Below, piece after piece: positions 1,134-22,953 of a stretch of DNA of 23,846 nucleotides. The position numbers and the translations under genes were made by a program. The DNA comes from Podospora anserina (taxonomy: Eukaryota): contig CM030333.1 of the NCBI GenBank assembly GCA_017654855.1, positions 5,208,001-5,231,846 of the forward strand. The letters run 5' to 3'. Under the pieces are notes generated by a model. It ran no database searches. It had not been told where the DNA came from and saw nothing but the letters and a program-made list of their open reading frames with translations. Every line of letters begins with the position of its first letter. The stretch's first letter is position 1.

Positions 1134-3991
1134 ATGACGTCTCTGCTGAGTCGTATACTGCCCGCTGCCACCCAAAGCGCTTCATCCTCCAGCGGAAGTC
1201 ATGTCACTGATGCTCCAGAGGTCCCCCGCGTCCAAATTGGGCCCGCGGCAAACCACCTTCGAGATGCCATGATGGTCATGTACTGGGCTGGCGTGAGACG
1301 AGAATTGCCGCATATCGTCCAGACACTTCGAAAATGGAGGACTCGAGACGAATACTCAACGACGGTTCACCCCGACGAAGAGGACCGCTACATTCACGGC
1401 TATGAAACCTTTCTTGATCAAGTCAACCACACCTCTCGCGGGTTTTCCGACAGGTATCGCAAGCTTCCAAAGCTCAGAGACCCGGCGGAGGAAAGAGATG
1501 CCGATCGAGTGCCGACATACTCGGAAGCGCTTGAGGACCGAGGTTGGGACATTTACTCGGAACTGCAGAGCTCTTCCATCCGTCGCTCCATAATGATGGA
1601 CCTACAAGACCGGGAAGTGAAGGGGGAGGACGTGGTACATCGGCGAGCACGGATGCTACTCCAGTCCGCCCAGTTTCTCGACATGGACAAGATCATCGAG
1701 TACCGAGATCCAGAAGCGCTCATTACCTTTTGGAAGCAACCTACGCCCTCACAAGTTACGGTGTCATCCTACGACGAAGGACATATGCCGATTCTTGTTC
1801 CTCAAGCGTGCGACTCATGCAGCAAGGCAATAAGAGGGTCGATCTTTCGAAACATCAAGACAGACCAGATGATTTGTGAAGGTTGCTACCGGCGAGACTT
1901 TTATGGTCACAAGGACATCACCAAAGTGTATAAACAGTGCTGTCTGCGGAGAGCTGTGTCCGCCGACGATAGCCAGGAGATCTGCAGCTGCATCGATGTA
2001 TCACGAAGACACGGTGACGGACAGCTGAGAAATCTGTTCCCTGTGAACAATGATCTTTCCAATCCCGAACAGCATCTCAACACCGCCGGTGTGAACGGAA
2101 AGATTCGGTGTGGGCTTTATGAGTTGACGGATATGGCAGCAGAAGCCAAATTTGCCTCATGCCGCCACAGAGGGACGAGTCTTACTCTTGGGAAAGCCAA
2201 GCGAGAAGGCCGCTACAATCGCCCTCGTCGGGTCAACAACATCAATGGTGAGAATCCAGAGGGAAAGTTCAAGACAACCGAGTTTGGAGCGTCATTTGGA
2301 ACGACCACCAAAGGGACCGAGGACATCCCCTTTTACCTCAATGATATTGTCAATGACTATCCTTACGGAAATGTGCACATGGCGTTGAGAATTGGCCCGC
2401 TTGTGATTGAGAATGGAGTCAGCAAGTGAGTTACTTAGGGGTTCGTGCTTGGAATGCACTGCTAACTGTTGGCAGAACACACGGAGGCGTCCTCATCACC
2501 AGTCGGGACCCGCCAAACCTCCATGCTCTCCGAGACCCTTCTGAGGACATCCGGCACTCGCTCTTGGTCACTGGACAAGCAGACAGAACCCTCTATTCGC
2601 AGCAACGTCCCCGAGCTCCCAAGAGATACAAGGCAATGCTTAAACAAGTTGCTGGCGGTGTCTTTTGCGGGTTTTTTGAGCAAGAGGCAGAGGAACAAAT
2701 CATTGACACACTGATGAAGGAGAGCCTTCGGCTTGTCGACAACGGAATCAGCGTGACAGAGAAGAACACCTTGATGGATCAAGCTGTCAACCGGTTGATG
2801 GCGCTGCTCAAACCCTACCTGGGACCCCGGATCGAGGTCTACATTGACAGCATCGTTGCCAAATTGCTGGACCCAAACGTGAATCTTCGATGGAGCTTCT
2901 CAAACAACAACTGTCAGACCTTTGTCGACAACATTATTGATCGGTCGCTCTTTGGTTCGCTGTTTGCTCCGCATGGACCTAGCAACGTGGAGCAAGAATC
3001 AGCCAACATGCCATACCCCCTGTACCTCATGAGCTTTGTCTGCCGACCTGGAGCCTACGTGCCGCAACGAGCTCGCTCCAAATACGATGTACCCAACGGC
3101 TTGACAGAGGAATATCTCCTCAAGTTTCGGTACGGACGACATGAAGAGTCCGACATTGCCGATGCTCTCTCAGAATACTGGTATGACTGGGGTGCTTTTG
3201 ATGGGCCATTGTACCCCTATCAGGATCTGTTCCCTTGGGACTGCACGGAAGCCTTCAACCGGTATCCTGTGACATGTGGTTCGGAGTGCAACATCTCCAA
3301 ACACGTTTGGGCGTTCCCTTTCGACTCCTGGTCTCTCATCACCCTGCATCTATCCCGACCGAGAAACATGTATCCTCACAATGGATTCCCCGCCGACGAC
3401 TTGGGAACTCCATCCTTGCTGCACAATCCTTTGTCTAATTTGACAAAACTTGGGTCCGCTACCATGTCGGACACCTCCTGGTTCAAAAACAGACTTGCCA
3501 TACTTCTCGCCCAAGATACCCTGCTCTCTGCTGCAGCGGCAATGGCCCGTTGTTCGGCCTTTCGACAATCAACGTTCTGGCTTCACAAGCACGCTGATGA
3601 GCGAACAGACAGATTGAAATTGGGAGGGATTCACCGCGCTCAGCCGTTTAGCCATCACTTTGAGAAGGGGGCGTATCACCAGTATTTCATCGCTGGCTGG
3701 GCTCACTTGTCGCGACCACTGAAGATTGCCGAGTATGAAAAACTTAGAGACTGGAAAGCTACAAGACAAGATGTGGGCAGTTCAGATCACGACAGCGGTG
3801 ATGGAGGGGGAGGAGGGTGTGGTTTTGCATGCGCAGCTGGTGGAGCGGCGGCTGGAGCGGCATGTACTGGAGCGGCCGGAGATCTTGGAGATACCTGCGG
3901 GAGTGGATGCGTAAGTAGCTGTGGGAGTTCAGGTGGAGGTGATGGAGGTGATGGCGCTGGATGTGGAGGATGCGGTGGTTGCGGTGGATGA
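1134..3991 (+). CDS. Uncharacterised ~935-aa fungal protein; exons 1134-2425 and 2476-3991; ZZ-like Cys motif, possible permuted papain-like core, Gly/Cys-rich C-terminal tail
   Basis: ORFs 1134..2429 and 2426..3991 are joined in frame (..GVSK|THGG..) by a 50-bp intron 2426-2475 (GTGAGT..GCTAAC..CAG). Motifs: CDSC..ICEGCY, HMALRIG, NNCQTF, terminal GCGGCGGCGG. Confidence 0.85.
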
Positions 3992-4528
3992 GTGTTGGGA
4001 TTGGTCAAGCTTGCTTTTTCTCCACCCAGGTTCGGGATCAGGTTCTTTGCCAATTCATCACACTTCTTAGGAGACAGGAACAGTATTGAAACACTGCCAA
4101 CATAGCTCTGCCGCGAGATTGTTGTTGACCGAAGCCGAAAAGTAAGCAAATAGGAGGATTGTTCTGGCAAATGTGCATTGCATGTTGCGAAGCCAGGTTG
4201 GCATCATCTGTATGGCCAGGCGTCATGTCGAGTTGTCATTATAGCCAGCTATAGGCTACTCTGCTTTGCTGCGTGGATAGGGTAGATGTCAGAGCTAATT
4301 GTTTGAACAAACCACATCGTCGCAAATATTGGAGCTCTGCACCCACAGGTTTAAACGGTGTCGTGTACCATATTCACTCGAAGATGAAGTAAACGTGGAT
4401 GGGTCCTAACATTTTGAGTGGTGCGACAGAAGTTGGGCCTCGGTCGCATCACATCACAGTGATTAGATACCGATCTTGCGACGACGAGGTCTGGCCAAAC
4501 ACAAAGCCTGTGAGCTTGATGAGACTGT

Positions 4529-4537
4529 GTATATAAG
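4529..4537 (+). promoter_or_regulatory. Putative TATA box of the 4679 gene
   Basis: GTATATAAG about 150 bp upstream of the ATG, followed by a pyrimidine-rich leader (4570-4630). Confidence 0.45.
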
Positions 4538-4678
4538 ACTGGACGGGGAGCATGGAAACCGCAATCAAGCTCTCTTCACCTCTCACACTCTCACCTACAA
4601 CACTTCCTGCGACTTCATCTTCCTATCGGTCATTTGTCAATTCCTTCATTGCGAATCAACATTCTACAATCTCACACC

Positions 4679-5881
4679 ATGGCTTCCACTACCGTCGCCC
4701 CGACTGTTGATTTCAAAGGTATTGCAATCCACCTCGGCCGCTATTGCTACTCCGTCATCGCCTTCCTCCAGCTCCCCACAGACGTAGCATGGAGGCGCAC
4801 AGTTTCGGCAATCCAAGCCGCCAACACGGCAACATTCATGGCGATCAACCTCTATGTTCAGTTGTGCATCAACGTCGTGCGGCAATTCATCAACAACTCC
4901 TGGAACTCCATCGTGTCATCAGTACAGCAGGCCAGCACTACCGTCATTGCCGTGGTTGAATCTGTCAAGCTCACCGTCGGCCTCGGACTCGACTATCTCT
5001 TCAGCGCTGCGACCAACGCCACGAAAGCCTTCATCAGCCTTTTTGTCGACTACCTGCCTACCATTGCTGTCGGCTTCTACTCCGAAATGAGGAAGGAGGT
5101 CACGTTTCAACACATGAAGACCATGAACATGGTCCTCTTAGCCTCGAGTCTCGTATGGTTTTATCTTCGAAGATGTGTTGAGGTCGGCACCCCTGCTTTG
5201 CCCGCCAAAGACGGCCAGGTGACCAGTACTCGCAAGTGGAGGAGACGTTTTCAAGTTGTCCTTAGGGAGCTCGCCAGTCTCCTTGTCCTCAGTTCTGTCC
5301 TCTCCTACGCCGCAATGCCAGAGTGGACCGCCGCCACCATTGCCTCGTGGCTGTCTGCAGCGGCTGACCGACTGAGTTTTCTATCATCGATAGTTATGGA
5401 GAGAGTGAACCCCGTTTACGTCGCCGTGGTTGAAGGTACAAATTATCATCTTGGCAATCTCATTGAGGAATGTGTTTCTCGACTGCCACCAATATTGGAG
5501 AGAATTGAACCGGTTTATGGTGCCCTTGGTGGAGACAGTATCAGGCTTCAGCTCATCAAATTCGCCGGGGACTGTTTTGAGCGACTCCCACCGCGACCAG
5601 ACTGGCATCCGTGGGTGGGTATGTCTAGAGATGTTGGAATAGGGGTGTTGGCACCGATTATTCTCGGTGGCCACGGTCCTTCACCTTCTCCCATTTGCGC
5701 AGCCAGCAACACCAGCTCAACGCTCATCAAGAGTTCAGCTCCACCAACAATACCGGAACCCGCCCTCTCCTATCAGGGAGACGCTATGGTGGTGTTGCCT
5801 TTTTTGATGTATGTTATTGCGGCTTGGGATTTAGTAATGCTGGTGCGGCGACGACAAAGGAAAGGACAGGATCGGGCATGA
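4679..5881 (+). CDS. Hypothetical ~400-aa multi-pass membrane protein
   Basis: Long ORF with the first ATG in a good context (CACCATGG at 4679). Several hydrophobic segments and a C-terminal TM followed by a basic RRRQRK. No family recognised. Confidence 0.7.
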   Translation: MASTTVAPTVDFKGIAIHLGRYCYSVIAFLQLPTDVAWRRTVSAIQAANTATFMAINLYVQLCINVVRQFINNSWNSIVSSVQQASTTVIAVVESVKLTVGLGLDYLFSAATNATKAFISLFVDYLPTIAVGFYSEMRKEVTFQHMKTMNMVLLASSLVWFYLRRCVEVGTPALPAKDGQVTSTRKWRRRFQVVLRELASLLVLSSVLSYAAMPEWTAATIASWLSAAADRLSFLSSIVMERVNPVYVAVVEGTNYHLGNLIEECVSRLPPILERIEPVYGALGGDSIRLQLIKFAGDCFERLPPRPDWHPWVGMSRDVGIGVLAPIILGGHGPSPSPICAASNTSSTLIKSSAPPTIPEPALSYQGDAMVVLPFLMYVIAAWDLVMLVRRRQRKGQDRA

Positions 5882-6076
5882 ATAAGGGGGTCAAGGAAAG
5901 AGGGTGCATATGTAGATACAGATTCTAAGAAATAGAACAGGAACACAATCTGTTGTTCCTAGTTTATGCCCGATGCCCCACGTCAATATTTTCACTATTT
6001 AATAGGTCCACATTCTAAACTGTAAAATAGGTTAATAGAAATATATTTAAAGAACTTGTGAGGCTGTATCTAAAAC

Positions 6077-6141
6077 CCCTAATACTTATTCTCTAATGGA
6101 TAGTAGTATAATCCGTTAAAAAGTATATTGAAAAAACGTCC
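6077..6141 (+). mobile_element. Degenerate relic of the element left terminus (copy E0)
   Basis: CCCTAATACTTATTCTCTAATGGATAGTAGTATAATCCGTTAAAAAGTATATTGAAAAAACGTCC aligns with the termini at 6976, 7555, 14656 and 19082. Confidence 0.7.
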
Positions 6142-6158
6142 TGTTGTGAGCCTCCGAG

Positions 6159-6535
6159 TGTGACGAACCTCTATCTAGAATCTCTGAAAGGGATACCGGT
6201 TGAAGGCTCTTCTGAACAATCCTGGTTCGGTATAGCTAGTCAGTGTACAATAAATGGCTTATCTCGATCACAATAGCTAAGATACTAACGATTGTAACTT
6301 ATATTGCATACTGCGGAACTATCTATCTACACTAGCTAGTTCCTCCGTATATATAGACCCAATGCCGAGCCCGGCACTATCCTAGATCGATAGACTCGAC
6401 TATCGATCCTATCGATATTATTCCTTTTGGGGTTGACTCCCCTAGATCGATCCTCGATCCCCTTAACGTATATTATAAGCGAGTCGTATATATAAGCGAG
6501 TCGTACAGTCTCTACCACGACGCGTCCTCCTTACA
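6159..6535. mobile_element. Putative solo LTR (~377 bp)
   Basis: Begins TGTGA and ends TTACA (TG..CA, imperfect inverted termini). Flanked by CCGAG/CCTAG (4/5 match, possible TSD). Non-coding, with an internal TATATA and short direct repeats (TATAAGCGAGTCGTA x2). Confidence 0.5.
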
Positions 6536-6564
6536 CCTAGCATTAATTTTTTCCACAGCCCAAT

Positions 6565-6694
6565 ATGCCTCCTACTTTAAAGGAAGCTAGGATACTCTTA
6601 GCCCTTAAGCCTCCGAGCTGCAGCTAAACTCTACAACGTACTAGCTATGACTCTCTCTAACCGACGCGCCGGCCGGCCTACACGACGCGATATA
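6565..6694 (+). pseudogene. Fot1/pogo-type (Tc1-mariner superfamily) transposase N-terminal HTH fragment
   Basis: MPPTLKEARILLAL-[deletion/frameshift]-SLRAAAKLYNVLAMTLSNRRAGRPTRRD matches the characteristic EARILLAL...SxRxAAxxYxVPxxTLxxRxxGRxxRRD start of fungal Fot1/Pot transposases. Truncated at about 6694. Confidence 0.8.
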
Positions 6695-6975
6695 TGTGAC
6701 AAGGGCTGTAATATTAGGGCTTGGAACTCATGGTTCAATTCAGGCTAATAATCTTCAATGGCCTCGAAGAGCGTGATAAAGAAGAAGAAGGTCTAGGAAT
6801 ACAAATAGCTTTTGAGAACGCGTCTTTATCCTTCGCCCAGTGGTCCGTGCATTGTGGCCTTAGGCCGCTACTAAGTCTTTCAATATCTTAGGTTAACTAA
6901 TATTATTTCCTTAATAACCGCGAAGCTTATAATTATCTGCCTCACTTTAACTACTGGCTTATAACGTGCAGTTAC

Positions 6976-7554
6976 CCCTATCAGTTATTCTCCGATGGAT
7001 TGTAGTACAATCCGTTAAGAAACGTACCAAAAAAAACGCCTCACTTTGGAAATAGGGGGTAGGATCCGTTAAGAATTTAGTTATACGATCCGATAAGATT
7101 TTCTTTACCAAAACAAAAGAAAAAAATATTATTAGAATCGTTTGAACGAGTGTTACAACCCTGGGGTATAGACGAGAATAACGATTAGTTATAGAATTAC
7201 GGGAGCAGGGGCTAATCGGGAAAATACTTAGAAGAGCTAATTACAGGGAAGGACGGTAATTAGTGCGATTAGAACACTAATTAGACTAAGCAGGCTAGGC
7301 CGAGGTAATTAGTGTAATTAAGACACTAATTAAGCTAAACGTAAATAATTAGTATACTCGGAATACTAATTAAAAGAATTACAGCTAGGAAAAAAAGTTT
7401 ATATATATAGAGGAACTAACTAATATAAATAAATAGTTCCGTAATATATAATTTATAATTATATTTACGGTATTTTATATTTATATTAAAATATTTTATT
7501 ATATATTATTTAATTATACCGAACTAATTATTAAAAATTACCTTTAATTAATAT
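6976..7554 (+). mobile_element. Element copy E1: same terminus, divergent interior, truncated
   Basis: The first ~175 bp match the terminus plus part of one 202-bp unit. After about 7150 the sequence is unrelated to E2-E4 until the next terminus at 7555. Confidence 0.75.
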
Positions 7555-7654
7555 CCCTATTAGTTATTCTCCGATGGATTATAGTACAATCCGTTGAAAA
7601 GCGCACCAAAAAAAAGGCCCCACTTTAGAAACAGGGGTAGGATCCGTTAAAGAA

Positions 7655-10600
7655 TTCAGTTGTACGATCCGATGGGATTTCTCCCGTTAAAATAAAAAGT
7701 AAAGATAGTATTAGAATCGCCTGGACGAGCTGTATAGAATGGTATAAGGTGTATTATTGTATAAGCGGTGTAGAATTATAAATAAAAGATATAAAGTTAG
7801 GTATAAGTATGCTAGTAATGCACGTAGATAGTAAAGTAAGGTTAGGTAATAGAAAAGTAAGTTATACGATCCGATAGGATTTCTTCCGTCAAAATAAAAA
7901 GTAAAGATAGTATTAGAATCGCCTAAACGAGCTATATAGAATAGTATAAAGTATATTATCGTATAAGCGGTATAGAATTATAAATAAAAGATATAAAGTT
8001 AGGTATAAGTATATTAGTAATATACGTGGATAGTAAAGTGAGGTTAGGTAATGGAAAGGTAAGTTATACGATCCAATAGGATTTTTCCTATTAAAATAAA
8101 AAACAAAGATAATATTAAAATTGCCTAAACGAACTATATAAAATAATATAAAGTATATTATCGTATAAGCGGTATAGAATTATAAGTAAAAAATATAAAG
8201 TTAAGTATAAGTATATTAATAATATACGTAAATAGTAAAGTAAGGTTAAGTAATAAAAAAGTAAGTTATACGATCCGATAGGATTTCTCCTATTAATATA
8301 AAAAGTAAAAATATTATTAAAATTACCTAAACGAGCTATATAAAATAGTATAGGGTATATTATTATACGAACGGTATAGAATTATAAATAATAAATATAA
8401 AGTTAAATATAAATATATTAGTAATGTACGTAAATAGTAAAGTGAGGTTAGGTAATAAAAAAGTAAATTATACGATCCGATAGGATTTCTTTTATTAAAA
8501 TAAAAAGTAAAGATACTATTAAAAATAATTTAACGAATTATATAAAATAATATAAAATATAGTATTATATAAGCGGTATAGAATTATAAATAAAAAATAT
8601 AAAGTTAGGTATAAGTATATTAATAATATACGTAAATAGTAAAGTAAGGTTGGGTAATAGAAAGGTAAATTATACGATCCGATAGAATTTCTTTTATTAA
8701 TATAAAAAGCAAAAACACTATTAGAATTACCTAAACGAGTTGTATAGAATAGTATAGGGTATATTATTATACGAGTAGTATAGAATTATAAATAGTAAAT
8801 ATAAAGTTAAATATAAGTATATTAATAATATATATAGATAGTAAAGTGAGGTTAGGTAATAGAAAAGTAAGTTGTACGATCCGATAGGATTTCTCCTATT
8901 AAAATAAAAAGTAAAGATATTATTAAAAATAATTAAACGAGCTATATAAAATAATATAAAGTATATTATCGTACGAGCGGTATAGAATTATAAATAAAAG
9001 ATATAAAATTAAATATAAGTATATTAGTAATGTATATAAATAGTAAAGTAAGGTTAAGTAATGGAAGGGTAAGTTATACGATCCGATAGGATTTCTCCTA
9101 TTAATATAAAAAGTAAAGATATTATTAAAATTACTTAAACGAGTTATATAAAATAGTATAAGGTATATTATTATATAAGCGGTATAGAATTATAAATAGT
9201 AAATATAAAGTTAGGTATAAATATACTAGTAATATACGTAAATAGTAAAGTAAGGTTAAGTAATAAAAAAGTAAGTTATACGATCCGATAGGATTTTTCC
9301 TATTAAAATAAAAAGTAAAAATATTATTAAAAATAATTAAATAAGTTATATAGAATAGTATAAGGTATATTATTGTATGAACGGTATAGAATTATAAGTA
9401 AAAAATATGAAGTTAGGTATAAGTATATTAGTAATATACGTGGATAGTAAAGTAAGGTTAGGTAATAGAAAGGTAAATTATACGATCCGATAGGATTTCT
9501 TTTATTAATATAAAAAGTAAAGATACTATTAGAATTATTTAAACGAACTATATAGAATAGTATAGGGTATATTATTATATGAGTAGTATAGAATTATAAA
9601 TAGTAAATATAAAGTTAGGTATAAGTATATTAATAATATATGTAAATAATAAAATAAGATTAGGTAATAGAAAAGTAAATTATATAATCCGATAGGATTT
9701 CTTTTATTAAAATAAAAAGTAAAGATACTATTAAAATTACTTAAACGAGCTATATAGAATAGTATAGGGTATATTATTGTATAAGCGGTATAGAATTATA
9801 AATAGTAAATATAAAGTTAGGTATAAGTATATTAGTAATATATGTAAATAGTAAAGTGAGGTTGGGTAATAAAAGAGTAAGTTATACGATCCGATAGGAT
9901 TTCTTTTATTAAAATAAAAAGTAAAGATACTATTAAAAATAATTAAACGAGCTATATAGAATAGTATAAGGTATATTATTATACGAGCGGTATAGAATTA
10001 TAAGTAAAAAATATAAAGTTGGGTATAAATATATTAGTAATATATGTAGATAGTAAAGTGAGGTTAGGTAATGGAAAGGTAAGTTATACGATCTAATGGG
10101 ATTTCTCTTATTAATATAAAAAGTAAAGATACTATTAGAATTATCTAAACGAGTTATATAGAATAGTATAGGGTATATTATTATATAAGCGGTATAGAAT
10201 TATAAATAGTAAATATAAAATTAAGTATAAGTATATTAGTAATATACGTAGATAGTAAAGTAAGGTTGGGTAATAGAAAAGTAAGTTATACGATCCGATA
10301 GGATTTTTTTTATTAAAATAAAAAGTAAAGATATTATTAAAAATAATTAAACGAGTTATATAGAATAGTATAAGGTATATTATTATACGAGCGGTATGGA
10401 ATTGTAAATAAAAGATATAAAGTTAAGTATAAGTATATTAATAATATATATAGATAGTAAAATAAGGTTAAGTAATAGAAGGGTAAGTTATATAATTTAA
10501 TAAGATTTTTCCTATTAATATAAAAAGTAAAAATACTATTAGAATTGCTTAAACGAGTTATATAGAATAGTATAAGGTATATTATTATACGAGCGGTATA

Positions 10601-11432
10601 AAATTATAAATAATAAATATAAAGTTAGGTATAAGTATATTAATAATATACGTAAATAGTAAAGTAAGGTTAAGTAATAGAAAAGTAAGTTATACGATCC
10701 AATAGGATTTTTTTTATTAAAATAAAAAGTAAAAATATTATTAAAAATAATTAAATAAGCTATATAGAATAATATAAAATATATTATTATACGAGCGGTA
10801 TAGAATTATAAATAAAAGATATAAAGTTAAGTATAAGTATATTAGTAATATATATGGATAATAAAGTAAGGTTAGGTAATGGAAGGGTAAGTTATACGAT
10901 CCGATAGGATTTCTCTTATTAATATAAAAAATAAAGATACTATTAAAATTACTTAAACGAGCTATATAAAATAATATAAAGTATATTATTATATAAGCAG
11001 TATAAAATTATAAATAATAAATATAAAGTTAAGTATAAGTATATTAATAATATATATAAATAGTAAAGTAAAGTTAGGTAATAAAAAAGTAAGTTATACG
11101 ATCCGATAAGATTTCTTTTATTAAAATAAAAAGTAAAAATATTATTAAAAATAATTAAACGAGTTATATAGAATAATATAAAGTATATTATTATACGAAT
11201 AATATAAAATTATAAGTAAAAGATATAAAGTTAGGTATAAGTATATTAATAATATACGTAGATAGTAAAGTGAGGTTAGGTAATAGAAAGGTAAGTTATA
11301 CGATCCGATAGGATTTTTTTTATTAATATAAAAAGTAAAGATACTATTAAAATTACTTAAACGAGTTATATAAAATAGTATAAAGTATATTATTATACGA
11401 ACGGTATAGAATTATAAATAAAAAATATAAAA
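7655..11432. repeat. 202-bp tandem array, ~18.7 units, RIP-mutated
   Basis: The TACGATCCGA anchor falls at 7663, 7865, 8067 ... 11299: 19 anchors at exact 202-bp spacing. Units differ mainly by transitions. Confidence 0.95.
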
Positions 11433-11462
11433 TTAATTGATTTTTATTATTATATAATTTAT

Positions 11463-11981
11463 TTAATTATCGGAATTATTAATAACTATAAGCTTTTAAC
11501 TTTTTTCCGCCGCTCCCTTATTTCCTTCGCTCTTTTCTTCGGCTTTAATACCATTTTATTTAGTAATATAGAAATTATATTTATTACCGTAATCCCTTTA
11601 CTTATAATTATTATAAATATTACCCTAGTACCTATCTATCGTACGATAATCCTTAAACGGCCCTCTATTAAGCTTATTAGTATAAGTAATATAGGGAGAA
11701 ATAGTTACTAAACTACGGCTTTAAATTAAAATTATATTTAGGTAGTTCGGACGAATTAATACTTTAGCCCCCTTTACTTTACCGGGGATATATTTAATAT
11801 CGGCCGATAGTAGAGCCAAAATTATTTATTGTATCTCCTATATATTTATTAGTTTAAATATTATTATACGGGAAAAATATATATTAATATTAATATAGAA
11901 ACTATTTATTAGGCTCTTAATATAAGGCTAGTTAATATCGATAACCTTATACGAGTTACGGGTAGTAAGGATAAAAGTTAT
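11463..11981 (-). pseudogene. DUF3716-like Cys-cluster protein gene, RIP-inactivated (copy in E2)
   Basis: Colinear with 17281-17799 at offset 5818; see that feature. The start position is approximate. Confidence 0.7.
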
Positions 11982-12329
11982 TTTAAATATTTATTTAAAA
12001 GTTAATTAATTTATATAATTAAAAGTTTATTAGAAAAGGGCTTTAATTAGAATTAAACCTATACTTTTAAAAACTTTAAGACCGTATATACCGCTTAGTT
12101 ATTATGCTTTAAGATCTTTATATTATCTTTTAAGCGATAATACTAATAAATAATAAATTTATAAACTTTATATAAAAATTATATAATATTTTTTTACTAT
12201 TATATAATATTTTATTATACGATATTTATATTATTTTATTATACGATATTTATATTATTTTATTATACGATAAGCTTACTATATAACCGTCCGGGAATTA
12301 AATATCTATATTTTTTAATTAAACTTTAT

Positions 12330-13967
12330 TATACGGCACTTAGACGACTTAATTAGAATAATAAAACTATATTATATAGTTAGTTTGTCGAGGGATTTAG
12401 AAGAAAAGGCCTGCTTTGTAGACCTAGACCCCGGCAACCGTACGCCACTGCCTTTTTGCCGAGGCATGCCCTAACTATTATACGGAACTAGTAACTATAC
12501 GCTACTGCCTTCCTGCCGAGGCATGCCCTAACTATTGTACGGCACCTAGACGCTTTGATCGGAATAATAACGCTTTATTATAAAGCTGGCCTGTCGAGGG
12601 ATTTAGAAAAAAAGGTCCGCTTTTAAAGACCTAGATCCGGCAACCGCACCTTACTGCCTTCCTGCCTAGGCATACCCTGACTATCGTACGGTACTTAAAC
12701 GCCTTAATCGGAATAACAAAGCTCTGTTATATAGCTGGGCAATCGAGGTAATTAGAAGAAATGGTCCTAGATCCTCGTAGCCGCACGCCACTGCCTTCGC
12801 GCCTAGGCGAGCCTTGTTTACCGTACGGGACCTAGACGCCTGGATCGGAATAACAAGGCTCTATTATATAGCTGGGCAGTCGAGGTAGTTGGAAGAAATG
12901 GTCCCAGATCCTCGCAGCCGTACGCTACTACCTTCGTGCTTAGGCGAGCCCTAATTACCGTACGGGACGTAGATCCTTGCAGCCGCACGCCACTACCTTT
13001 ACGCCTAGGCGAGCTTTGCTTACCGTACGGGACCTAGACGCTTGGATCGGAATAATAAGGCTTTGTTATATAGTTGGGCAATTGAGGTAGTTGGAAGAAA
13101 TGGTCCTAGATCCTCGCAGCCGCACGCCACTGCCTTCGTGTTTAGGCGAGCCCTAACTACCGTACGGGACGTAGATCCTCGTAGCCGCACACTACTGCCT
13201 TTATGCCTAGGCGAGCCTTGCTTACCGTACGGGACCTAGACGCTTGGATCGGAATAATAAAGCTCTGTTATATAGTTAGGTAGTCGAGGTAGTTGGAAGA
13301 AATGGTCCTAGATCCTTGCAGCCGTACGCTACTGCCTTCGCGCTTAGGCGAGCCTTGCCTACCGTACGGGACCCAGACGTCTGGATCGGAATAATAAAGT
13401 TTTATTATATAGCTGGGTAATCGAGGTAGTTGGAAGAAATGGTCCTAGATCCTCGTAGCCGCACGCCACTACCTTCGTGCCTAAGCGAGCCCTAACTACC
13501 GTACGGGACGTAAATCTTCGCAGCCGCACGCCACTGCCTTCGCGCTTAGGCGAGCCTTACCTACCGTACGGGACCTAGACGCCTGGATCGGAATAATAAA
13601 GCTTTGTTGTATAGCTGGGTAATCGAGGTAGTTAGAAGAAATAGTTTTAGATCCTCGCAGCCGCACGCTACTGCTTTCGTGCTTAAACGAGCCTTACTTA
13701 CCGTACGGGACCTAGACGCTTAGATCGGAATAATAAAGCTTTATTATATAGCTAGCCTATCGAGGGATTTAAAAGAAAAGGCCTACTTTAAAGAAAAAGG
13801 TTTGCTTTTATAGACCTAGACCCCGGCAACCGCACGTTACTACCTTCTTACCCAGGTACGCCCTAACTATCGTATAGGACTAGTAACCGTACCTTACTAC
13901 TTTCCTACCTAAATACGTCTTAACTATTGTACGGGATTTAGACCCCGGTAACCGCACGTTACTACCC
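12330..13967. repeat. GC-rich composite tandem array (E2)
   Basis: GGAATAA anchors at 12355, 12561, 12710, 12847, 13049, 13251, 13388, 13590 and 13727 (spacings 206, 149, 137, 202, 202, 137, 202, 137). The 202 unit is the 137 unit plus a duplicated 65-bp subunit. Confidence 0.92.
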
Positions 13968-14099
13968 TTATCTACTTATACGTAACCCACTTTACCTTTA
14001 ATAGGATATCCTTTTTTAAAAAAACTTACTAATAAACTTTAATTTAATAATATTTCGTATTATATATAATTATTATATTATTATTAATACTATATTAAA

Positions 14100-14655
14100 A
14101 TAAATCCTTTTATTTATATTTCCCGCTTTTAAATTTTTATTTATAGGAAATATAAAGTAATTATTTTTATAAATAAAGTATTTACTTATTTTTATATATT
14201 TTATAAAGATATTATAATTATAAATAGATTAAATATCGTATGAAAGTATAATAATTTATTAATAGTTTTTCGAAAATAATAAAATTTAATAAACTTTATA
14301 TTTCTTTTTATAGTAATTAATTTAATTTTAAAACTAAAGAAACTTTTTTTTAATAAATTAAAGTACGATATTTACGTTTATATTATATGGATTAAGAGGG
14401 TAATATAAAAGTATTACTATACGAGGTACGATTAGGTTAACCTTAATATAAAAGGGGGAAATATTAAAGTAACTTAATAATATTAAGGACTTTAAATAAT
14501 TAGGATATATTATTAACGGTTTTTTAAAAGTTAATTAATTATTAAATATTTTAAGGTACGATTAACGGAGCCGGTAGTCGGGAGTTCTAACCTCGTATAA
14601 TAAATTTAAAAACGAAAAAAATAGTTTATAGTATTTTATTATACGATTAGCTTAA
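14100..14655 (+). pseudogene. DUF3505-like zinc-finger gene 5' part, RIP-inactivated, cut at the E3 terminus
   Basis: Colinear with 22954-23509. Starts ATA(ATG) AAT CCT TTT = MNPF. Confidence 0.7.
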
Positions 14656-14756
14656 CCCTATCAGTTATTCTCCGATGGATTGTAGTACAATCCGTTAAAA
14701 AGCGCACCAAAAAAAAGGCCCCACTTTAGAAATAGGGGGTAGGATCCGTTAAAGAA

Positions 14757-17250
14757 TTTAGTTGTACAATCCGATAGGATTTCTCCCGTTAAAATAAAAA
14801 GTAAAGATAGTATTAGAATCGCCTGGACGAGCTGCATAGAATGGTATAAGGTACATTATCGTACGAGCGGTATAGAATTATAAACAAAAGATATGAAGTT
14901 AGGTATAAGTATGCTGGTAATGTACGTGGATAGTAAAGTGAGGTTAAGTAATAGAAGGGTAAGTTATACGATCTAATAGGATTTCTCTCGTTAAAATAAA
15001 AAATAAAGATAGTATTAAAATTGCTTAAACGAGTTATATAGAATAGTATAAGGTATATTATTGTACGAGTAGTATAGAATTATAAATAAAAGATATAAAG
15101 TTAGGTATAAGTATACTAATAATATATGTAAATAGTAAAGTGAGGTTAGGTAATAGAAGGGTAAGTTGTACGATCCGATAAGATTTTTTTTATTAATATA
15201 AAAAGTAAAGATACTATTAAAATTACTTAAATGAGTTATATAGAATAGTATAGGGTATATTATTGTACGAGCGGTATAGAATTATAAATAATAAATATAA
15301 AGTTAGGTATAAGTATATTAGTAATATACGTAAATAGTAAAGTAAGGTTAGGTAATAGAAAGGTAAATTATACGATCCGATAGGATTTCTTTTATTAATA
15401 TAAAAAGTAAAGATACTATTAGAATTATTTAAACGAACTATATAGAATAGTATAGGGTATATTATTATATAAGCGGTATAGAATTATAAATAGTAAATAT
15501 AAAATTAAATATAAGTATATTAGTAATATACGTAGATAGTAAAGTAAGGTTGGGTAATAGAAAAGTAAGTTATACGATTTAATAAGATTTCTCCTATTAA
15601 AATAAAAAGTAAAGATATTATTAAAAATAATTAAACGAGTTATATAGAATAATATAAAGTATATTATTGTACGAGCGGGATAGAATTATAAATAAAAGAT
15701 ATAAAGTTAGGTATAAATATACTAGTAATGTACGTAAATAATAAAGTAAGGTTAGGTAATAGAAGGGTAAGTTGTACGATCCGATAGGATTTTTTCTGTT
15801 AAAATAAAAAGTAAAGATAGTATTAGAATCGCTTAGACGAATTATATAGAATAGTATAAGGTATATTATTATACGAGCGGTATAGAATTATAAATAAAAA
15901 ATATAAAGTTAGGTATAAATATATTAGTAATGTACGTAGATAGTAAAGTAAAGTTAAGTAATAAAAAAATAAGTTATATAATCCGATGGGATTTTTCCCG
16001 TTAAAATAAAAAGTAAAGATAGTATTAGAATTACTTAAACGAGTTATATAGAATAGTATAAAGTATATTATCGTACGAGCGGTATAGAATTATAAGTAAA
16101 AGATATAAAGTTAAGTATAAATATATTAGTAATATATATAGATAGTAAAGTAAGGTTAAGTAATAGAAGGGTAAGTTATACGATCCGATAGGATTTCTCT
16201 TATTAATATAAAAAGTAAAAACATTATTAAAATTACTTAAACGAGCTATATAGAATAGTATAGGGTATATTATTATACGAGTGGTATAGAATTGTAAATA
16301 GTAAATATAAAGTTAAGTATAAGTGTGCTAGTAATGCACGTAGATAGTAAAGTGAGGTTGGGTAATAGAAGAGTAAGTTGTACGATCCGATGGGATTTCT
16401 CCCATCAAAATAAAAAGCAAAGATACCATTAGAAACAACTAAACGAGCTGCACAGAATAGTAAATAAAAGATATAAAGTTAGGTATAAGTATGCTAGTAA
16501 TGTACGTAGATAGTAAAGTGAGGTTGGGTAATGGAAGGGTAAGTTGTACGATCCGATGGGATTTCTCCCGTCAAAATAAAAAGCAAAGATAACATTAAAA
16601 TTACCTAAACGAGCTACATAAAATAGTATAAGGTACATTATTGTATAAGCGGTATAGAATTATAAGTAAAAAATATAAAGTTAAGTATAAATATACTAAT
16701 AATGCACGTAGATAGTAAAGTAAGGTTGGGTAATAGAAAGGTAAGTTATACGATCCAATAGGATTTCTCCTATTAATATAAAAAATAAAGATATTATTAG
16801 AATTACCTAAACGAGCTGCATAGAATAGTATAGGGTGTATTATCGTACGAGCGGTATAAAATTATAAATAATAAATATAAAGTTAGGTATAAGTGTACTA
16901 GTAATATACGTAAATAGTAAAGTAAGGTTAGGTAATAAAAAAGTAAGTTGTACGATCCGATAGGATTTCTCCCATTAAAATAAAAAGCAAAGATACTATT
17001 AGAAATAACTGAACGAGCTGCACAGAATAGTAAGTAAAAAATATAAAGTTAGGTATAAGTATACTAGTAATGCACGTAGATAGTAAAATAAAGTTAAGTG
17101 ATGGAAGGGTAAGTTATACGATCCGATAGGATTTCTCCCGTTAATATAAAAAGTAAAGATACTATTAGAATTACCTAAACGAGCTATATAAAATAATATA
17201 AAGTATATTATCGTATAAACGGTATAGAATTATAAATAAAAAATATAAAA
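14757..17250. repeat. 202-bp tandem array, 13 anchors, two 166-bp deletion units
   Basis: Anchors at 14765 ... 16381, 16547, 16749, 16951, 17117. The units starting at 16381 and 16951 lack 36 bp. Confidence 0.95.
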
Positions 17251-17280
17251 TTAATCGATTTTTATTATTATATAACTTAT

Positions 17281-17799
17281 TTAATTATCGGAATTACTAA
17301 TAACTATAGGCTCCTAATTCTTTTCTGCCACTCTCTTATTTTCCTCGCTCTCTTCCTCGGCTTTAGTACCGCTTTATTTAGCGGTATAAAAGCTATATTT
17401 ACTACCGTAATCCCTCTATTTATAATTACTATAAGCATTACCTTAGTACCTATCTATCGTATAATAATCCTTAAACGGCCCTCTATTAAGCTTATTAGTA
17501 TAGGTAGTATAGGGAGAGGTAGCTATTAAATTACGGTTCTAGATTAAAACTATATTTAGGTAGTTCGGACGAGTTAGTACTTTAGCCCCCTTTACTTTGC
17601 CGGAGATGTATTCGATATCGGCCGATAGTAGAGCCGAAATTATTTATTATGTTTCCTATATATTTATTAATTTAAGTATTATCGTACGGGAAAGATATAT
17701 ATTAATATTAATATAGAAGCTATTTATTAGGCTCTTAATATAAGGCTGGCTAGTGTCGATAACTTCGTACGAGCCACGGGTAATAAGGATAAGAGCTAT
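17281..17799 (-). pseudogene. DUF3716-like Cys-cluster protein gene (~170 aa), RIP-inactivated (best-preserved copy)
   Basis: One minus-strand frame whose stops are all TAA/TAG (revertible to CAA/CAG/TGG). Reverting TAT>TGT gives ..RPNY....I..SPCTTC..KLNRGPFKDC..IDRYQGNACSNCKWRDHGSKCSF...EEESEE...EPIVISDSDD*, i.e. the CxxC..GPF..C..CxNCxW..C pattern of fungal DUF3716 (PF12511). The start codon is uncertain. Confidence 0.75.
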
Positions 17800-18122
17800 T
17801 TTAAATATTTATTTAAAAATTAATTAATTTATACGATTAAAAGTTTATTAGAAAAGGGCCTTAATTAAAATTAAACCTATACCTTTAAAAACTTTAAAAC
17901 CGTATATACCGCTTAATTATTATACTTTAAGATCTTTACATTACCTCTTAAGCAATAATACTAATAAACGATAAATCTATAAACTCCGTATAAAAATTAT
18001 ATAATACTTTTTTACTATTATATAATATTCTATTATACGATATTTATATTATTCTATTATACGATAAGCCTACTATATAACCGTCCGGGAACTAAATATC
18101 TATATCTTTTAATTAAACCTTA

Positions 18123-19081
18123 TCGTACGGCACCTAGACGGCTTAATCGGAATAATAAAGCTATATTACATAGCTAGCCTATCGAGGGATTTAGAAGAAA
18201 AGGCCTGCTTTACAGACCCAGACCCCGGCAACCGCACGCCACTGCCTTCCTGCCGAGGCATGCCCTGACCATCGTACGGGACTAGCAACCATACGCCACT
18301 GCCTTCCTGCCGACGTATGCCCTAACCATCGTACGGCACCTAGACGCTTTGATCGGAATAATAACGCTCTGTTACAAAGCTGGCCTATCGAGGGATTTGG
18401 AAGAAAAGGTCCGCTTTTAAAGACCCAGATCCGGCAACCGCACCCCACTACCTTCCTGCCCAGGCATGCCCTGACTATCGTACGGCACCCAGACGCCTTA
18501 ATCGGAATAACAAGGCTCTATTACACAGCTAGGCAGTCGAGGTAATTAAAAGAAATGGTCCCAGATCCTCGCAGCCGCACGCCACTACCTTCGCGCCCAG
18601 GCGAGCCTTGCCTACCGTACGGGACCCAGACGCCTGGATCGGAATAACAAGGCTCTGTTGCACAGCTGGGCAGTCGAGGTAGTTGGAAGAAATAGTCCCA
18701 AATCCTCGCAGCCGCACGCCACTGCCTTCGTGCCCAGGCGAGCCCTAACTACCGTACGGGACGCAGATCCTCGCAGCCGCACGCCACTGCCTTCGCGCCC
18801 AGGCAAGCCTTGCCTACCGTACGGGACCCAGACGCCTAAATCGGAATAACAAGGCTCTGTTGCATAGCTAGGCAGTCGAGGTAGTTAGAAGAAATGGTCC
18901 CAGATCCTCGCAGCCGCACGCCACTGCCTTCGTACCCAGGCGAGCCTTGCCTACCGTACGGGACCCAGACGCCTGGATCGGAATAACAAAGCTCTGTTGC
19001 ACAGCTAGGCAGTCGAGGTAGTTGAAAGAAATAGTCCCAGATCCTCGCAGCCGCACGCCACTACCTTCGTGCCCAGGCGAG
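18123..19081. repeat. GC-rich composite tandem array (E3), truncated
   Basis: Anchors at 18149, 18355, 18504, 18641, 18843 and 18980 (spacings 206, 149, 137, 202, 137). Confidence 0.92.
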
Positions 19082-19182
19082 CCCTATCAGTTATTCTCCA
19101 ATGGATTATAGTACAATCCGTTGAAAAGCACACCAAAAAAAAGGCCCCACTTTAGAAACAGGGGGTAAGATCCGTTAAAGAA

Positions 19183-20738
19183 TTCAGTTATACGATCCGA
19201 TGGGATTTCTCCTATCAAAATAAAAAACAAATATAGTATTAGAATCGCCTAAACGAGCTACACAGAATAGTATAAGGTATATTATTGTACGAGCGGTATA
19301 AAATTGTAAGTAAAAGATATAAAGTTAGGTATAAGTATACTAATAATATACGTAGATAGTAAAATAAGGTTGGGTAATAGAAAAGTAAGTTATACGATCC
19401 GATGGGATTTCTCCCGTTAAAATAAAAAGTAAAAATAATATTAGAATCGCCTGGACGAGCTACATAGAATAGTATAAAATATATTATCGTACGAACGGTA
19501 TAGAATTATAAGTAAAAAATATAAAGTTAGGTATAAGTATATTAATAATATACGTAAATAGTAAAGTAAGGTTAAGTAATAGAAAAGTAAGTTATACGAT
19601 CCAATAGGATTTCTTTTATTAAAATAAAAAGTAAAAATACTATTAAAAATAATTAAACGAGCTATATAGAATAGTATAAAGTATATTATTATACGAGCGG
19701 TATAGAATTATAAATAAAAAATATAAAGTTAGGTATAAGTATATTAGTAATATATATGGATAGTAAAGTAAAGTTAAGTAATAGAAACGTAAGTTATACG
19801 ATCCGATAGGATTTCTCTTATTAATATAAAAAATAAAGATATTATTAAAATTGCTTAAACGAGTTATATAGAATAATATAGGGTATATTATTATACGAGC
19901 GGTATAGAATTATAAATAGTAAATATAAAATTAAATATAAATATATTAATAATATATATAAATAGTAAAGTAAGGTTAAGTAATAAAAGGGTAAGTTATA
20001 CGATCTAATAGGATTTCTCCTATTAATATAAAAAGTAAAAATATTATTAAAATTACTTAAACGAGTTATATAGAATAATATAAAGTATATTATTATATAA
20101 ATAATATAAAATTATAAATAATAAATATAAAGTTAAATATAAATATATTAGTAATATACGTAAATAATAAAGTAAGGTTAAGTAATAAAAGAGTAAATTA
20201 TACGATCTAATAAAATTTTTTTTATTAAAATAAAAAGTAAAGATACTATTAAAAATAATTAAACGAGTTATATAGAATAGTATAAAGTATATTATTATAC
20301 GAGCGGTATAGAATTATAAGTAAAAAATATAAAGTTAGGTATAAATATATTAGTAATGTACGTAGATAGTAAAGTGAGGTTGGGTAATAGAAGGGTAAGT
20401 TATATAATTTAAGAAAATTTTTTCTATTAATATAAAAAGTAAAAATACTATTAAAATTATTTAAACGAGTTATATAGAATAGTATAAGGTATATTATTAT
20501 ACGAGCGGTATAGAATTATAAATAATAAATATAAAGTTAAATATAAGTATATTAGTAATATATGTAAATAGTAAAGTGAGGTTAAGTAATAGAAAAGTAA
20601 ATTATACGATCCGATAGGATTTCTTTTATTAATATAAAAAGTAAAGATATTATTAGAATTACTTAAATGAGTTATATAAAATAATATAAAGTATATTATT
20701 ATACGAGTAGTATAAAATTATAAATAAAAAATATAAAA
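19183..20738. repeat. 202-bp tandem array, ~7.7 units
   Basis: Anchors at 19191, 19393 ... 20605 (8 anchors, exact 202-bp spacing). Confidence 0.95.
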
Positions 20739-20768
20739 TTAATTAACTTTTATTATTATATAATTTAT

Positions 20769-21287
20769 TTAATTATTAGAATTATTAATAACTATAGGCT
20801 CCTAGTTTTCTTCCGCCACTCCTTTATTTCCTTCGCTCTTTTCTTCGGCTTTAGTACCGCTTTATTTAGCGGTATAGAAACTATATTTACTACTGTAATC
20901 CTTTTACTTATAATTATTATAAGTACTACCCTAATACTTATTTATCGTACGATAATCTTTAAACGGCCCTTTATTAGGCTTATTAGTATAGGTAGTATAG
21001 GGAGAGGTAACTATTAAACTACGGCTTTAGATTAAAACTATATTTAAGTAGCTCGGACAAGTTAGTACTTTAGTCCCCTTTACTTTACCGGGAATGTATT
21101 TAATATCGGCCGATAGTAAAGCCGAAATTACTTATTATATTTTTTATATATTTATTAATTTAAATATTATTATACGGGAAAAATATATATTAATATTAAT
21201 ATAGAAGCTATTTATTAGGCTCTTAATATAAGGCTAACTAATATTAATAACCTTATACGAGCTACGGGTAATAAGGATAAAAGCTAT
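20769..21287 (-). pseudogene. DUF3716-like gene, RIP-inactivated (copy in E4)
   Basis: Colinear with 17281-17799 at offset 3488. Confidence 0.7.
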
Positions 21288-21514
21288 TTTAAATATTTAT
21301 TTAAAAGTTAATTAATTTATACGATTAAAAGTTTATTAAAAAAGGGCTTTAATTAGAATTAAACCTATACCTTTAAAAACTTTAAAACTATATATACTAC
21401 TCAGTTATTATACCTTAAAATCTTTATATTACCTTTTGAGTAATAATACTAATAAACGATAAATCTATAAATCCCGTATAAGAATTATATAATACTTTTT
21501 TACTATTATATAAT

Positions 21515-21602
21515 ATTCTATTATACGATATTTATATTGTTCTATTATACGATATTTATATTGTTCCATTATACGATATTTATATTATTCCATTGTACGA
21601 TA
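21515..21602. repeat. 24-bp VNTR (TTCCATTGTACGATATTTATATTG-like)
   Basis: 4 TACGAT-containing units here, 3 in E2 (~12210-12272) and 2 in E3 (~18028-18066). Confidence 0.8.
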
Positions 21603-21659
21603 GGCCTACTATGTAACCGTCCGGGAACTAAATATCTATATCTTTTAATTGAACTTTAT

Positions 21660-22821: not shown

Positions 22822-22953
22822 TTATTTATTTACACGTGACCCACTTTACCTTTAATAGGGTATTCTTTTCCAAAAAAATTTATTAATAAACTTTAATTTA
22901 ATAACATCTCGTATCGTATATAACTATTATATTACTATTAATACTATACTAAA

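Follow-up and report, generated by a model that had tools for sequence, protein, structure and literature searches.

Introduction

In TERT knock-outs of Pyricularia (Magnaporthe) oryzae, very short TTAGGG motifs serve as sites at which an end invades its own subtelomere (Rahnama et al. 2020, PMC7367193). Spontaneous telomere failure in Pyricularia gave rise, in the cases set out by Rahnama et al. (2021, PMC8381367), to tandem arrays of variously truncated copies bounded by telomere motifs, with small telomere vestiges at all of the repair joints; micro-homology-mediated events and joints to sequence lying 20 to >120 kb from an end are described in the same account. The present study deals with a stack of truncated copies (E0 to E4) of a long repeated unit in a 23,846-nucleotide stretch of contig CM030333.1, referred to below as the window, and compares this stack with the Pyricularia arrays and with known telomere-associated elements.

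In Drosophila, the HeT-A, TART and TAHRE elements are arranged head to tail with the constant end toward the chromosome body, are truncated on the outer side and have very long non-coding 3′ regions. Endonuclease-deficient Penelope-like elements (Athena, Coprina) carry 3′ telomere repeats complementary to the G-rich overhang, and the Y′ units of yeast type I survivors are full-length, contain a helicase open reading frame (ORF) and are separated by telomere tracts of tens of bases. Among fungal elements, MoTeR and FoTeR, of the CRE clade, attach to telomeres with a sense strand of the C-strand type (FoTeR, PMC12857005; MoTeR, PMC7367193); according to the structural descriptions in these sources, they encode a reverse transcriptase (RT) and a restriction enzyme-like (REL) endonuclease, measure 1.7-5.5 kb, are 5′-truncated and have 3-7 TAACCC units after the 3′ end. 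The sections of Dhillon et al. 2014 (PMC4522978) on subtelomeres describe elements without long terminal repeats (non-LTR) that have internal tandem repeats, a 3′ TTAGGG pointing away from the telomere and truncated tandem copies.

The stack is here tentatively interpreted, at somewhat less than even confidence, as having arisen in a Sordariomycete when de-protected chromosome ends were repaired by recombination, and as having then been fossilised by repeat-induced point mutation (RIP). We propose that the repeated unit is a telomere-adjacent, satellite-rich subtelomere block and not a gene-carrying mobile element.

Results

Arrangement of the copies

A sequence-only reading of the window had placed five left termini at 6077, 6976, 7555, 14656 and 19082, and these coordinates hold in a five-sequence alignment, in which CCCTA, five-sixths of the telomere unit CCCTAA, and a conserved head open all five plus-strand termini. 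An 18-mer of the head, searched for with up to three mismatches, matched four times on the plus strand and not at all on the minus strand (0.03 expected), E0 being too degenerate to match. The earlier statement that all termini lie on the same strand applies to five of six, the sixth being an inverted partial terminus of ~24 nt on the minus strand at 6170-6192. The copies and the DNA between them are as follows.

6077 to 6150, plus strand: E0, an old and degenerate copy that covers the unit's first 74 nt and starts with CCCTAA
6170 to 6360, minus strand: inverted S′ with the first ~24 nt of the head, comprising a sixth, partial terminus ending at 6192 and then the flank S at 6193-6360
6361 to 6975, plus strand: unrelated RIP-affected DNA
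6976 to 7150, plus strand: E1, a 175-bp copy with the head and the start of the first 202-bp unit
7151 to 7394, unstranded: V, non-unit DNA after E1, with three ~36-bp repeats
7395 to 7554, unstranded: S′, non-unit DNA before E2, a RIP-mutated inverted copy of 6193-6360
7555 to 14655, plus strand: E2, 7.1 kb, ending on TTAACC at the equivalent of 23511 in E4
14656 to 19081, plus strand: E3, 4.4 kb, cut inside a 65-bp unit of the GC-rich array, at the CCCTA of a native CCCTAA
19082 to 23846, plus strand: E4, at least 4.76 kb, running past the end of the window

Long collinear self-BLAST matches connect the three long copies, among them 7552-9360 with 14653-16462 (88.0%), 14656-16316 with 19082-20742 (87.7%), 17013-18969 with 20501-22505 (88.7%) and 13649-14657 with 22503-23511 (85.5%). 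The same comparison agrees with the earlier view that E3 (14656-19081) stops after 4.4 kb inside the GC-rich array, and it supports the length of 7.1 kb for E2; the supposed end of E2 in mid-gene finds no support, the tail having neither an ORF of at least 80 aa nor a Pfam match. E1 had been assigned 579 bp, but only ~175 bp (6976-7150) are unit-like, and 7151-7554 is other sequence.

Joints between copies

At two joints of the stack an uninterrupted template can be read in another copy. E3 stops at GAGCCCTA, where both E2 and E4 read GAGCCCTAAC. The E3/E4 joint runs ...CCCAGGCGAG, then CCCTA, then TCAG, and the same array point in E2 and E4 is ...GCGAGCCCTAACTACCG, so that the joint lies in a native CCCTAA with an overlap of 5 nt. 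E2, in turn, stops at TTAACC, where E4 reads TTAACCTTTT; the E2/E3 joint runs ...GCTTAACC followed by CTATCAG, and E4 continues with TTTAACCTTTTAAT. Taken as a whole, the E2/E3 joint, TTAACCCTA, contains eight bases in perfect telomere register (TAACCCTA), of which TAACC is template-derived, and the overlap would reach 7 nt if RIP produced the T that follows in E4 from a C, a change in the CpT context that is the commonest class among the copies. In the coordinates of E4, the truncation point of E3 corresponds to 22279, at CCCTA(A), and that of E2 to TAACC at 23507.

C-strand telomeric 5-mers start at 30 of the 4760 positions of E4. Both joints with a readable template fall on telomere-like 5-mers, in register, for which the chance is ~4e-5, a figure that refers to a motif class chosen after the joints had been seen and to two of five joints, the other three having no readable template. 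Since both breakpoints lie on in-register telomeric 5-mers, the truncation cannot be ascribed to random erosion or early termination; the truncation points were chosen by pairing with telomere-repeat sequence. A search for a telomere tract of two units with up to two mismatches returned no match anywhere in the window. A Helitron (start between A and TC) was also considered for the terminus and rejected, because the upstream CCCT is conserved in all copies and absent from the E2 template at the E3 joint.

Relationship of the copies and RIP

No transversion separates E2, E3 and E4 among the 4-7 differences of the head, the 107-131 of the middle region and the 124 of the tail. In the middle region, the derived (T or A) sites total 89 in E2, 70 in E4 and 41 in E3; 43, 30 and 15 of these, respectively, are private, and 30 are common to E2 and E4, 16 to E2 and E3 and 10 to E3 and E4. 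Such proportions are as expected for independent RIP of one sequence at common hot spots, and, together with the transition-only differences, they imply that E2-E4 were identical when made and that their divergence is all due to RIP. When 11436-14657 was compared with 20742-23511, 69 of the 124 C-to-T differences were in the CpT context and 40 of the 101 G-to-A differences in the ApG context, these being the commonest contexts because CpA was already exhausted. Indeed, CpA/TpG is nearly exhausted in all copies, and second-choice RIP contexts dominate the remaining variation.

E0 differs from E2-E4 by nine transversions and 12-13 transitions in 74 bp, which confirms it as the most degenerate copy, and the 175 bp of E1 contain 3-4 transversions; the two short copies are thus either older than the long ones or derived from diverged relatives. 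The outward growth over time suggested earlier rests on the greater age of E0 and E1; the RIP load of the long copies is non-monotonic along the stack (89, 41 and 70 derived sites in E2, E3 and E4). A 14-nt identity of E0 with the middle of the unit (20929) was dismissed as RIP convergence, as it vanishes in the less mutated E2 copy, and a long target duplication for E0, sought by eye, was dismissed on account of five transversions in 21 nt.

Structure of the repeated unit

The unit consists, in order, of a ~100-bp head, a 202-bp AT-rich satellite, a unique middle of ~1 kb, a GC-rich array and, last, an AT-rich tail that measures 1 kb or more, distributed among the long copies as follows.

E2: head 7555-7657; 202-bp array about 7658-11435 (18.7 copies); middle 11436-12500; GC-rich array ~12440-13890; AT-rich tail to 14655
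E3: head; 202-bp array 14760-~17254 (~12 copies, including two 166-bp variant units); middle; GC-rich array 18100-19081
E4: head 19082-19185; 202-bp array 19186-20741 (7.7 copies); middle 20742-21660; GC-rich array 21660-22800; AT-rich tail 22800-23846

Comparison of 33 in-register satellite units with their majority gave 560 transitions and 62 transversions, and the GC content of the unit rises from 22% to 43% when C is taken over T and G over A; the array was thus once a fairly ordinary satellite. Transversion markers distinguish three types of satellite unit, G, T and A, which succeed each other as G G G T A T A T A T t A T A T A T A T' in E2, G G T T A G G T A* G T A* T' in E3 and G G A T T A T T' in E4. 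E2 contains a 404-bp (T-A) higher-order repeat, and a 36-bp-deleted variant unit occurs twice in E3. The satellite arrays have been reshuffled independently in each copy. In the GC-rich array a 65-bp core recurs, either alone or lengthened by 72 bp (periods 65, 137, 202 and 339), and the order of the core types also differs among the copies. RIP has mutated these GC-rich arrays far less than it has the AT-rich portions of the respective copies: the units in E4 are up to 97% alike at 60% GC, and the E2 array has ~50% GC. A 24-bp mini-repeat (~4 copies) lies directly upstream of the GC-rich array, at 12180-12272 in E2 and 21504-21602 in E4.

On the plus strand, CCCTAA is found 5-6 times per copy and TTAGGG 0-1 times. 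The tail contains TAACCCTAA, one and a half telomere units, at 23292-23300 (E2 equivalent near 13983), which could be an older vestige joint within the unit. The head-like motif GTAC.ATCCG.T recurs sub-terminally and once per 202-bp unit.

Older fragments and intervening DNA

The inverted terminus was recognised through its flank. Aligned locally in a RIP-aware manner, 6170-6360 matches the reverse complement of 7395-7578 with a score of 187.5; the alignment includes indels and transversions, so the inverted copy is old. Given that 7395-7578 comprises the 160 bp upstream of E2 and the first 24 nt of the E2 head, the junction of the flank S′ with head-like sequence is present twice, in opposite orientations. 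The inverted 24-mer alone scores 27 against the head, compared with 22.9 ± 3.7 for shuffles, which is not significant, and its weight derives from the fact that it continues the flank alignment in register. In the RIP-affected DNA that follows, the frame ..LSLRAAAKLYNVLAMTLSNRRAGRPTRRD.. at 6566-6700 bears, by eye, a possible likeness to the N-terminal helix-turn-helix of pogo/Fot1-type transposases; a Pfam search of this frame gave no families at E up to 1, and the segment may be a RIP-damaged transposon relic. The three ~36-bp direct repeats after E1 are located at 7257-7380, each with a short palindrome TAATTAGTG...CACTAATTA.

Searches for genes, RNA and outside copies

No ORF of at least 80 aa is present in the AT-rich parts of the unit. 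Pfam searches with six read-through frames each of the tail and the middle (stops read as X) matched no family in any of the 12 frames, nor in three further frames, and the de-RIPed consensus of middle and tail offered no convincing frame; the longest open frame after de-RIPing, of 161 codons, was not taken as a gene because it overlaps the GC array. The GC-array ORF 21746-22081 found no relatives among 12 candidates scored. Rfam and tRNA scans gave no matches, the terminal 120 nt on the minus strand folds no better than shuffles (z = -0.69), and the idea of a ribosomal DNA spacer was abandoned, as no rRNA was found. Outside the window, the head motif had no match in metagenome contigs and prokaryote genome contigs and the GC-array motif none in metagenome contigs; a full-text literature search, supplementary files being outside its scope, found no description of the unit.

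Gene-bearing left flank

The left part of the window contrasts with the stack in its composition.

1 to 6076, unstranded: unique gene-bearing flank, 52% GC, no RIP mutation
1134 to 2429 (431 aa), 2426 to 3991 (521 aa) and 4634 to 5881: long ORFs of this flank

The RIP indices switch near ~6000: TpA/ApT is 0.35-0.67 in the left flank versus 1.28-2.36 to the right, and (CpA+TpG)/(ApC+GpT) is 1.16-1.36 versus 0.07-0.94. To our knowledge, RIP is confined to filamentous ascomycetes. The 521-aa ORF (2426-3991) has 285 relatives at E ≤0.001 among 8000 candidates scored; the best named ones belong to the Sordariales (75-76% identity), namely Immersiella caudata (75% identity over 84% of the query) and Cercophora sp. 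(76% over 52%), and Fusarium species reach 56-62%. Taken with the presence of RIP, these matches identify the host as a Sordariomycete. Because the relatives are "ZZ-type domain" proteins of ~850-910 aa, 1134-3991 is probably a single gene; on sequence comparison, the ORFs 1134-2429 and 2426-3991 would make up one ZZ-type-like gene, of ~890 aa in its relatives. The two ORFs are in different frames with an overlap of a few bases near 2411-2429, probably owing to a short intron or a frame change. The predicted C-terminus is Gly/Cys/Ala-rich, and the taxonomic spread of the relatives is patchy. A Protein Atlas comparison of this gene was uninformative (scores ≤0.77), and Pfam assigned no family to six ORFs of the window.

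Discussion

Possible origin by repair of chromosome ends

Our interpretation starts from copies that were identical before RIP, have in-register micro-homology at both testable joints and give no coding signal. If the stack records the repair of de-protected ends, the constant left terminus would be the old telomere/subtelomere boundary, with CCCTA as a telomere remnant in C-strand orientation, and the head TCAGTTATTCTCC would be expected directly against (CCCTAA)n at native chromosome ends. A chromosome end left with a few bases of telomere would find, within a second copy of the block, a short telomere-like motif to pair with (CCCTAA of the GC array or TAACC of the tail); that is, the G-strand end (...CTGATAGGG-3′, minus strand) would pair with an internal CCCTA(A) or TAACC on the plus strand. 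The end would then be extended by copying to the end of the template, so that the added unit runs from the head to the invasion point. The process could be telomere-attrition-induced replication (TAIR) or break-induced replication (BIR) mediated by micro-homology, with the template on the same end via a displacement loop (D-loop), on a different end or on a circle that had been excised. Depending on the point of invasion, units of varying length with one constant end would result, and RIP in later sexual cycles would have mutated all copies. The reorganisation of the arrays beside identical unique parts would fit, if weakly, template-switch-prone copying.

Three elements of this scheme are inferred, namely that the head abuts telomeres at native ends, that DNA served as the template and to which side of the stack the chromosome end was situated. 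Any model has to account for the constant end with CCCTA before it on the plus strand, the variable ends at telomere-like motifs, the single orientation, the pre-RIP identity of E2-E4, the lack of coding capacity and the older short fragments beside un-RIPed genes, and the strongest constraint is the orientation of CCCTA. Telomere remnants toward a right-hand end should read TTAGGG, and here they are of the C strand, so the unit resembles a left-pointing chromosome end whose head adjoins the telomere. Simple BIR from a right-hand end does not yield the C-strand CCCTA pattern, whereas TAIR with a D-loop, circles or end fusions would. Among the earlier options, the healing of chromosome ends by BIR or circle integration is thus closest to our reading, except that its simplest, right-end form mismatches the CCCTA polarity. 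The Pyricularia precedent of telomere failure, together with the left-pointing units, leads us to rank a DNA-templated telomere-failure origin first.

Several points weigh against such an origin. The 5-nt vestige is indistinguishable from a mobile-element motif and too short to prove that it was telomeric, and a two-unit telomere tract is nowhere in the window. It is awkward that the simplest D-loop puts the chromosome end on the left, where single-copy genes escaped RIP: a duplicative capture of the left region should have been RIP-mutated, and a non-duplicative joint, circle templates or an end fusion must therefore be invoked. The oldest copies, E0 and E1, are those closest to the genes, an arrangement more in keeping with rightward growth. 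E1 is flanked by ..GTTAC on the left and by TGTTAC.. at its right edge, possibly a weak target duplication of 3-5 nt, and the inverted recurrence of S′ with the first 24 nt of the head could reflect site-specific insertion. Finally, the joints are known from the assembled sequence alone.

Comparison with known systems

The likeness to the Pyricularia arrays produced by TAIR, micro-homology-mediated TAIR or D-loops, as their published descriptions present them, lies in the one-orientation stack of truncated copies of a telomere-adjacent block with telomere-motif boundaries and vestiges, in the invasion at very short internal telomere motifs and in the Sordariomycete host. Here, all five plus-strand units are vestige-bounded and of one orientation, and both testable breakpoints are at internal telomere-like motifs. 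The differences are that the interstitial tracts described for the foxtail pathogen have 6-34 repeats, compared with a single partial repeat (5 nt) at this locus; that the breakpoint differs for each unit, so, unlike in the Pyricularia arrays as reported, no iterative amplification of one unit took place; and that the block is rich in satellite sequence, has neither an RT nor a helicase in view, and forms a heavily RIP-mutated fossil and not an active array. By this analogy, we provisionally file the structure as a RIP-fossilised end-repair stack, like the Pyricularia telomere-failure arrays, in another Sordariomycete.

HeT-A, TART and TAHRE share with the unit a constant end, variable truncation and a long non-coding end, but the host group here has telomerase-type TTAGGG telomeres and the joints have telomere-repeat micro-homology. 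Moreover, the minus-strand units end in ...CTGATAGGG, with no oligo(A) at these 3′ junctions, and no gag/RT ORFs are present in the visible part of the unit, which continues off the window. The 3′ end of Penelope-like elements is not matched either: the minus-strand 3′ end TAGGG is of the G-strand type and not complementary to a G overhang. As in Y′, a subtelomeric block would have been amplified in tandem by recombination on telomere failure, with telomere sequence between the units, but here each unit has its own truncation point and a helicase is not in evidence; for a RecQ-type helicase as in Y′/TLH, Pfam gave no match in those unique parts of the unit that the window covers, the remainder lying beyond it.

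MoTeR1/MoTeR2 and FoTeR have in common with the stack a telomere motif at the boundary, adjacent tandem repeats, head-to-tail truncated arrays and decay by RIP, as described in PMC7367193 and PMC12857005; in the unit, CCCTA and the 202-bp, 24-bp and 65/137-bp arrays all occur within the first 4-6 kb. They differ in that the unit, over as much as 7.1 kb, lacks an ORF and that repeat tracts are absent. For the RT/REL ORF, the 12 frames searched with Pfam gave no family, with E4 running off the window and RIP being severe. A 3′ TAACCC tract is lacking, strictly for the minus-strand reading, the plus-strand 3′ ends lying beyond the window. The truncation opposite the telomere motif is a difference only if the element is read on the plus strand, in which case the 5′ end is retained and the 3′ part missing in all five copies. 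The Zymoseptoria tritici non-LTR "family 4", or putative endonuclease-deficient Penelope-like, elements, characterised in the relevant section of PMC4522978 as subtelomere-restricted with 1-3 telomere hexamers at one end, likewise have internal tandem repeats and truncated copies in tandem with full ones; these elements of Dothideomycetes are 3.4-3.5 kb long and have an RT, whereas the unit in this Sordariomycete exceeds 7 kb and no RT is seen.

Alternative explanations

Taken together, the chance that the stack is instead a telomere-associated retroelement of an unusual type amounts to about a third, in either of two orientations. Read on the minus strand, the unit could be the long non-coding 3′ part of a retroelement or a transcript resembling telomeric repeat-containing RNA (TERRA-like) from the subtelomere, whose constant 3′ end (...CTGATAGGG, possibly with more G strand) was copied onto an uncapped right end by target-primed reverse transcription, and erosion of the copy at its 5′ side then preceded the next addition, as in HeT-A/TART. 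We regard this as unlikely, even though, as is the rule for such elements, the five constant ends would then all represent 3′ ends and every variable end a 5′ truncation. E0 (74 bp) and E1 (175 bp) do resemble severely 5′-truncated copies, E1 with a possible short target duplication, the oldest copies adjoin the un-RIPed genes with the youngest outward, and the micro-homology at the joints would be primer-template pairing; the subtelomeric non-LTR elements described by Dhillon et al. 2014 (PMC4522978) offer a precedent. Weighing on the other side, neither RT, gag nor any ORF appears in up to 7.1 kb, the joints have no oligo(A), a G-strand-type 3′ end cannot pair with a G-rich overhang, the terminal 120 nt has no unusual fold, and the arrays differ strongly between otherwise identical copies. 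The minus-strand retro-type array contemplated in the sequence-only reading thus retains its constant-end/truncation pattern and its age gradient, at the price of a G-strand-ended RNA and an RT that is not visible. A related scheme, to which we allow a thin chance, is RNA-templated healing, in which TERRA-like G-strand-ended transcripts of the block would be reverse-transcribed onto uncapped ends of a telomerase-bearing fungus, a HeT-A-like addition primed by a few bases of micro-homology with no element-encoded protein in >7 kb. Read on the plus strand, the constant end would be the 5′ end of a self-nested MoTeR/FoTeR-like non-LTR retrotransposon or its non-autonomous partner, each copy having entered a CCCTAA-like site of the previous one, with the orientation of the site setting that of the insert; one would then expect, to the right, the 3′ end of E4 with telomere repeats, the rest of E3 (...ACTACCGTACGG) and then that of E2. 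The host is a Sordariomycete, as are Fusarium and Pyricularia; the single 5′ telomere motif, repeat-rich 5′ region and C-strand sense strand match FoTeR, whose variable tandem repeats cluster upstream of its RT ORF, as described in PMC12857005; both testable insertion points are telomere-like on the plus strand; and the excess of CCCTAA over TTAGGG on that strand would explain the single orientation. What makes this rather improbable is that five copies are 5′-complete and 3′-truncated, the opposite of target-primed insertion, that unrelated DNA and not a host copy follows E0 and E1, that the 5′ region is ORF-free for >7 kb when the RT ORF starts at nt 594-1793 in the elements detailed in PMC12857005, and that the tail has no RT signal and multi-copy TAACCC tracts are missing. 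Nested self-insertion, also considered in the sequence-only reading, is accordingly conceivable for E2-E4 if CCCTAA-like sites were targeted, and does not account for E0 and E1, which are short and followed by unrelated DNA.

Two further explanations are less likely. A DNA transposon bounded by short terminal inverted repeats (CCCTATCAGTTATTCTCC...) that inserted again, locally, into copies of itself would account for the inverted partial terminus 6170-6192 that faces E0, with 6077-6192 as a 116-bp internally deleted two-ended derivative, for the sub-terminal motif GTAC.ATCCG.T repeated in every 202-bp unit and for the flank shared by the inverted terminus and E2, as if one target were preferred. 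However, the inverted terminus taken alone is insignificant, 6077-6192 has no target duplication around it, the Pfam frames contain no transposase, no right end of any long copy is visible and the telomere-register micro-homology would be left unexplained; we find this very improbable. Still harder to credit is an assembly artefact in which reads of several repeat-bearing chromosome ends were chained into one contig. The region is indeed highly repetitive, and the window ends inside a copy, but each copy has its own RIP pattern and array organisation, the joints show 5-nt telomere-like micro-homologies, unlike the long overlaps of assembler mis-joins, and 20 of the 24 public runs listed, from nine studies of one organism, contain part of 4700-14690 (shares 0.68 to 0.09), the parts being unspecified. 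No RNA run was listed among these, and six runs presumed to be RNA contain 0.09-0.15 of its words.

Significance

If the retro-type alternative were true, the stack would represent a telomere-associated element of an unusual sort, one end of which is very long, non-coding and rich in satellite sequence. If, on the other hand, the locus does record the repair of de-protected ends, it would be a natural, datable fossil of a telomere crisis in a wild Sordariomycete outside Pyricularia, in which three to five end repairs had followed one another and the exact joints had survived RIP. The motifs to be sought in other genomes would then be CCCTA with a constant head and breakpoints at internal CCCTAA/TAACC. 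Such a record would support the view that spontaneous telomere failure and micro-homology repair shape fungal chromosome ends and move sequence blocks.

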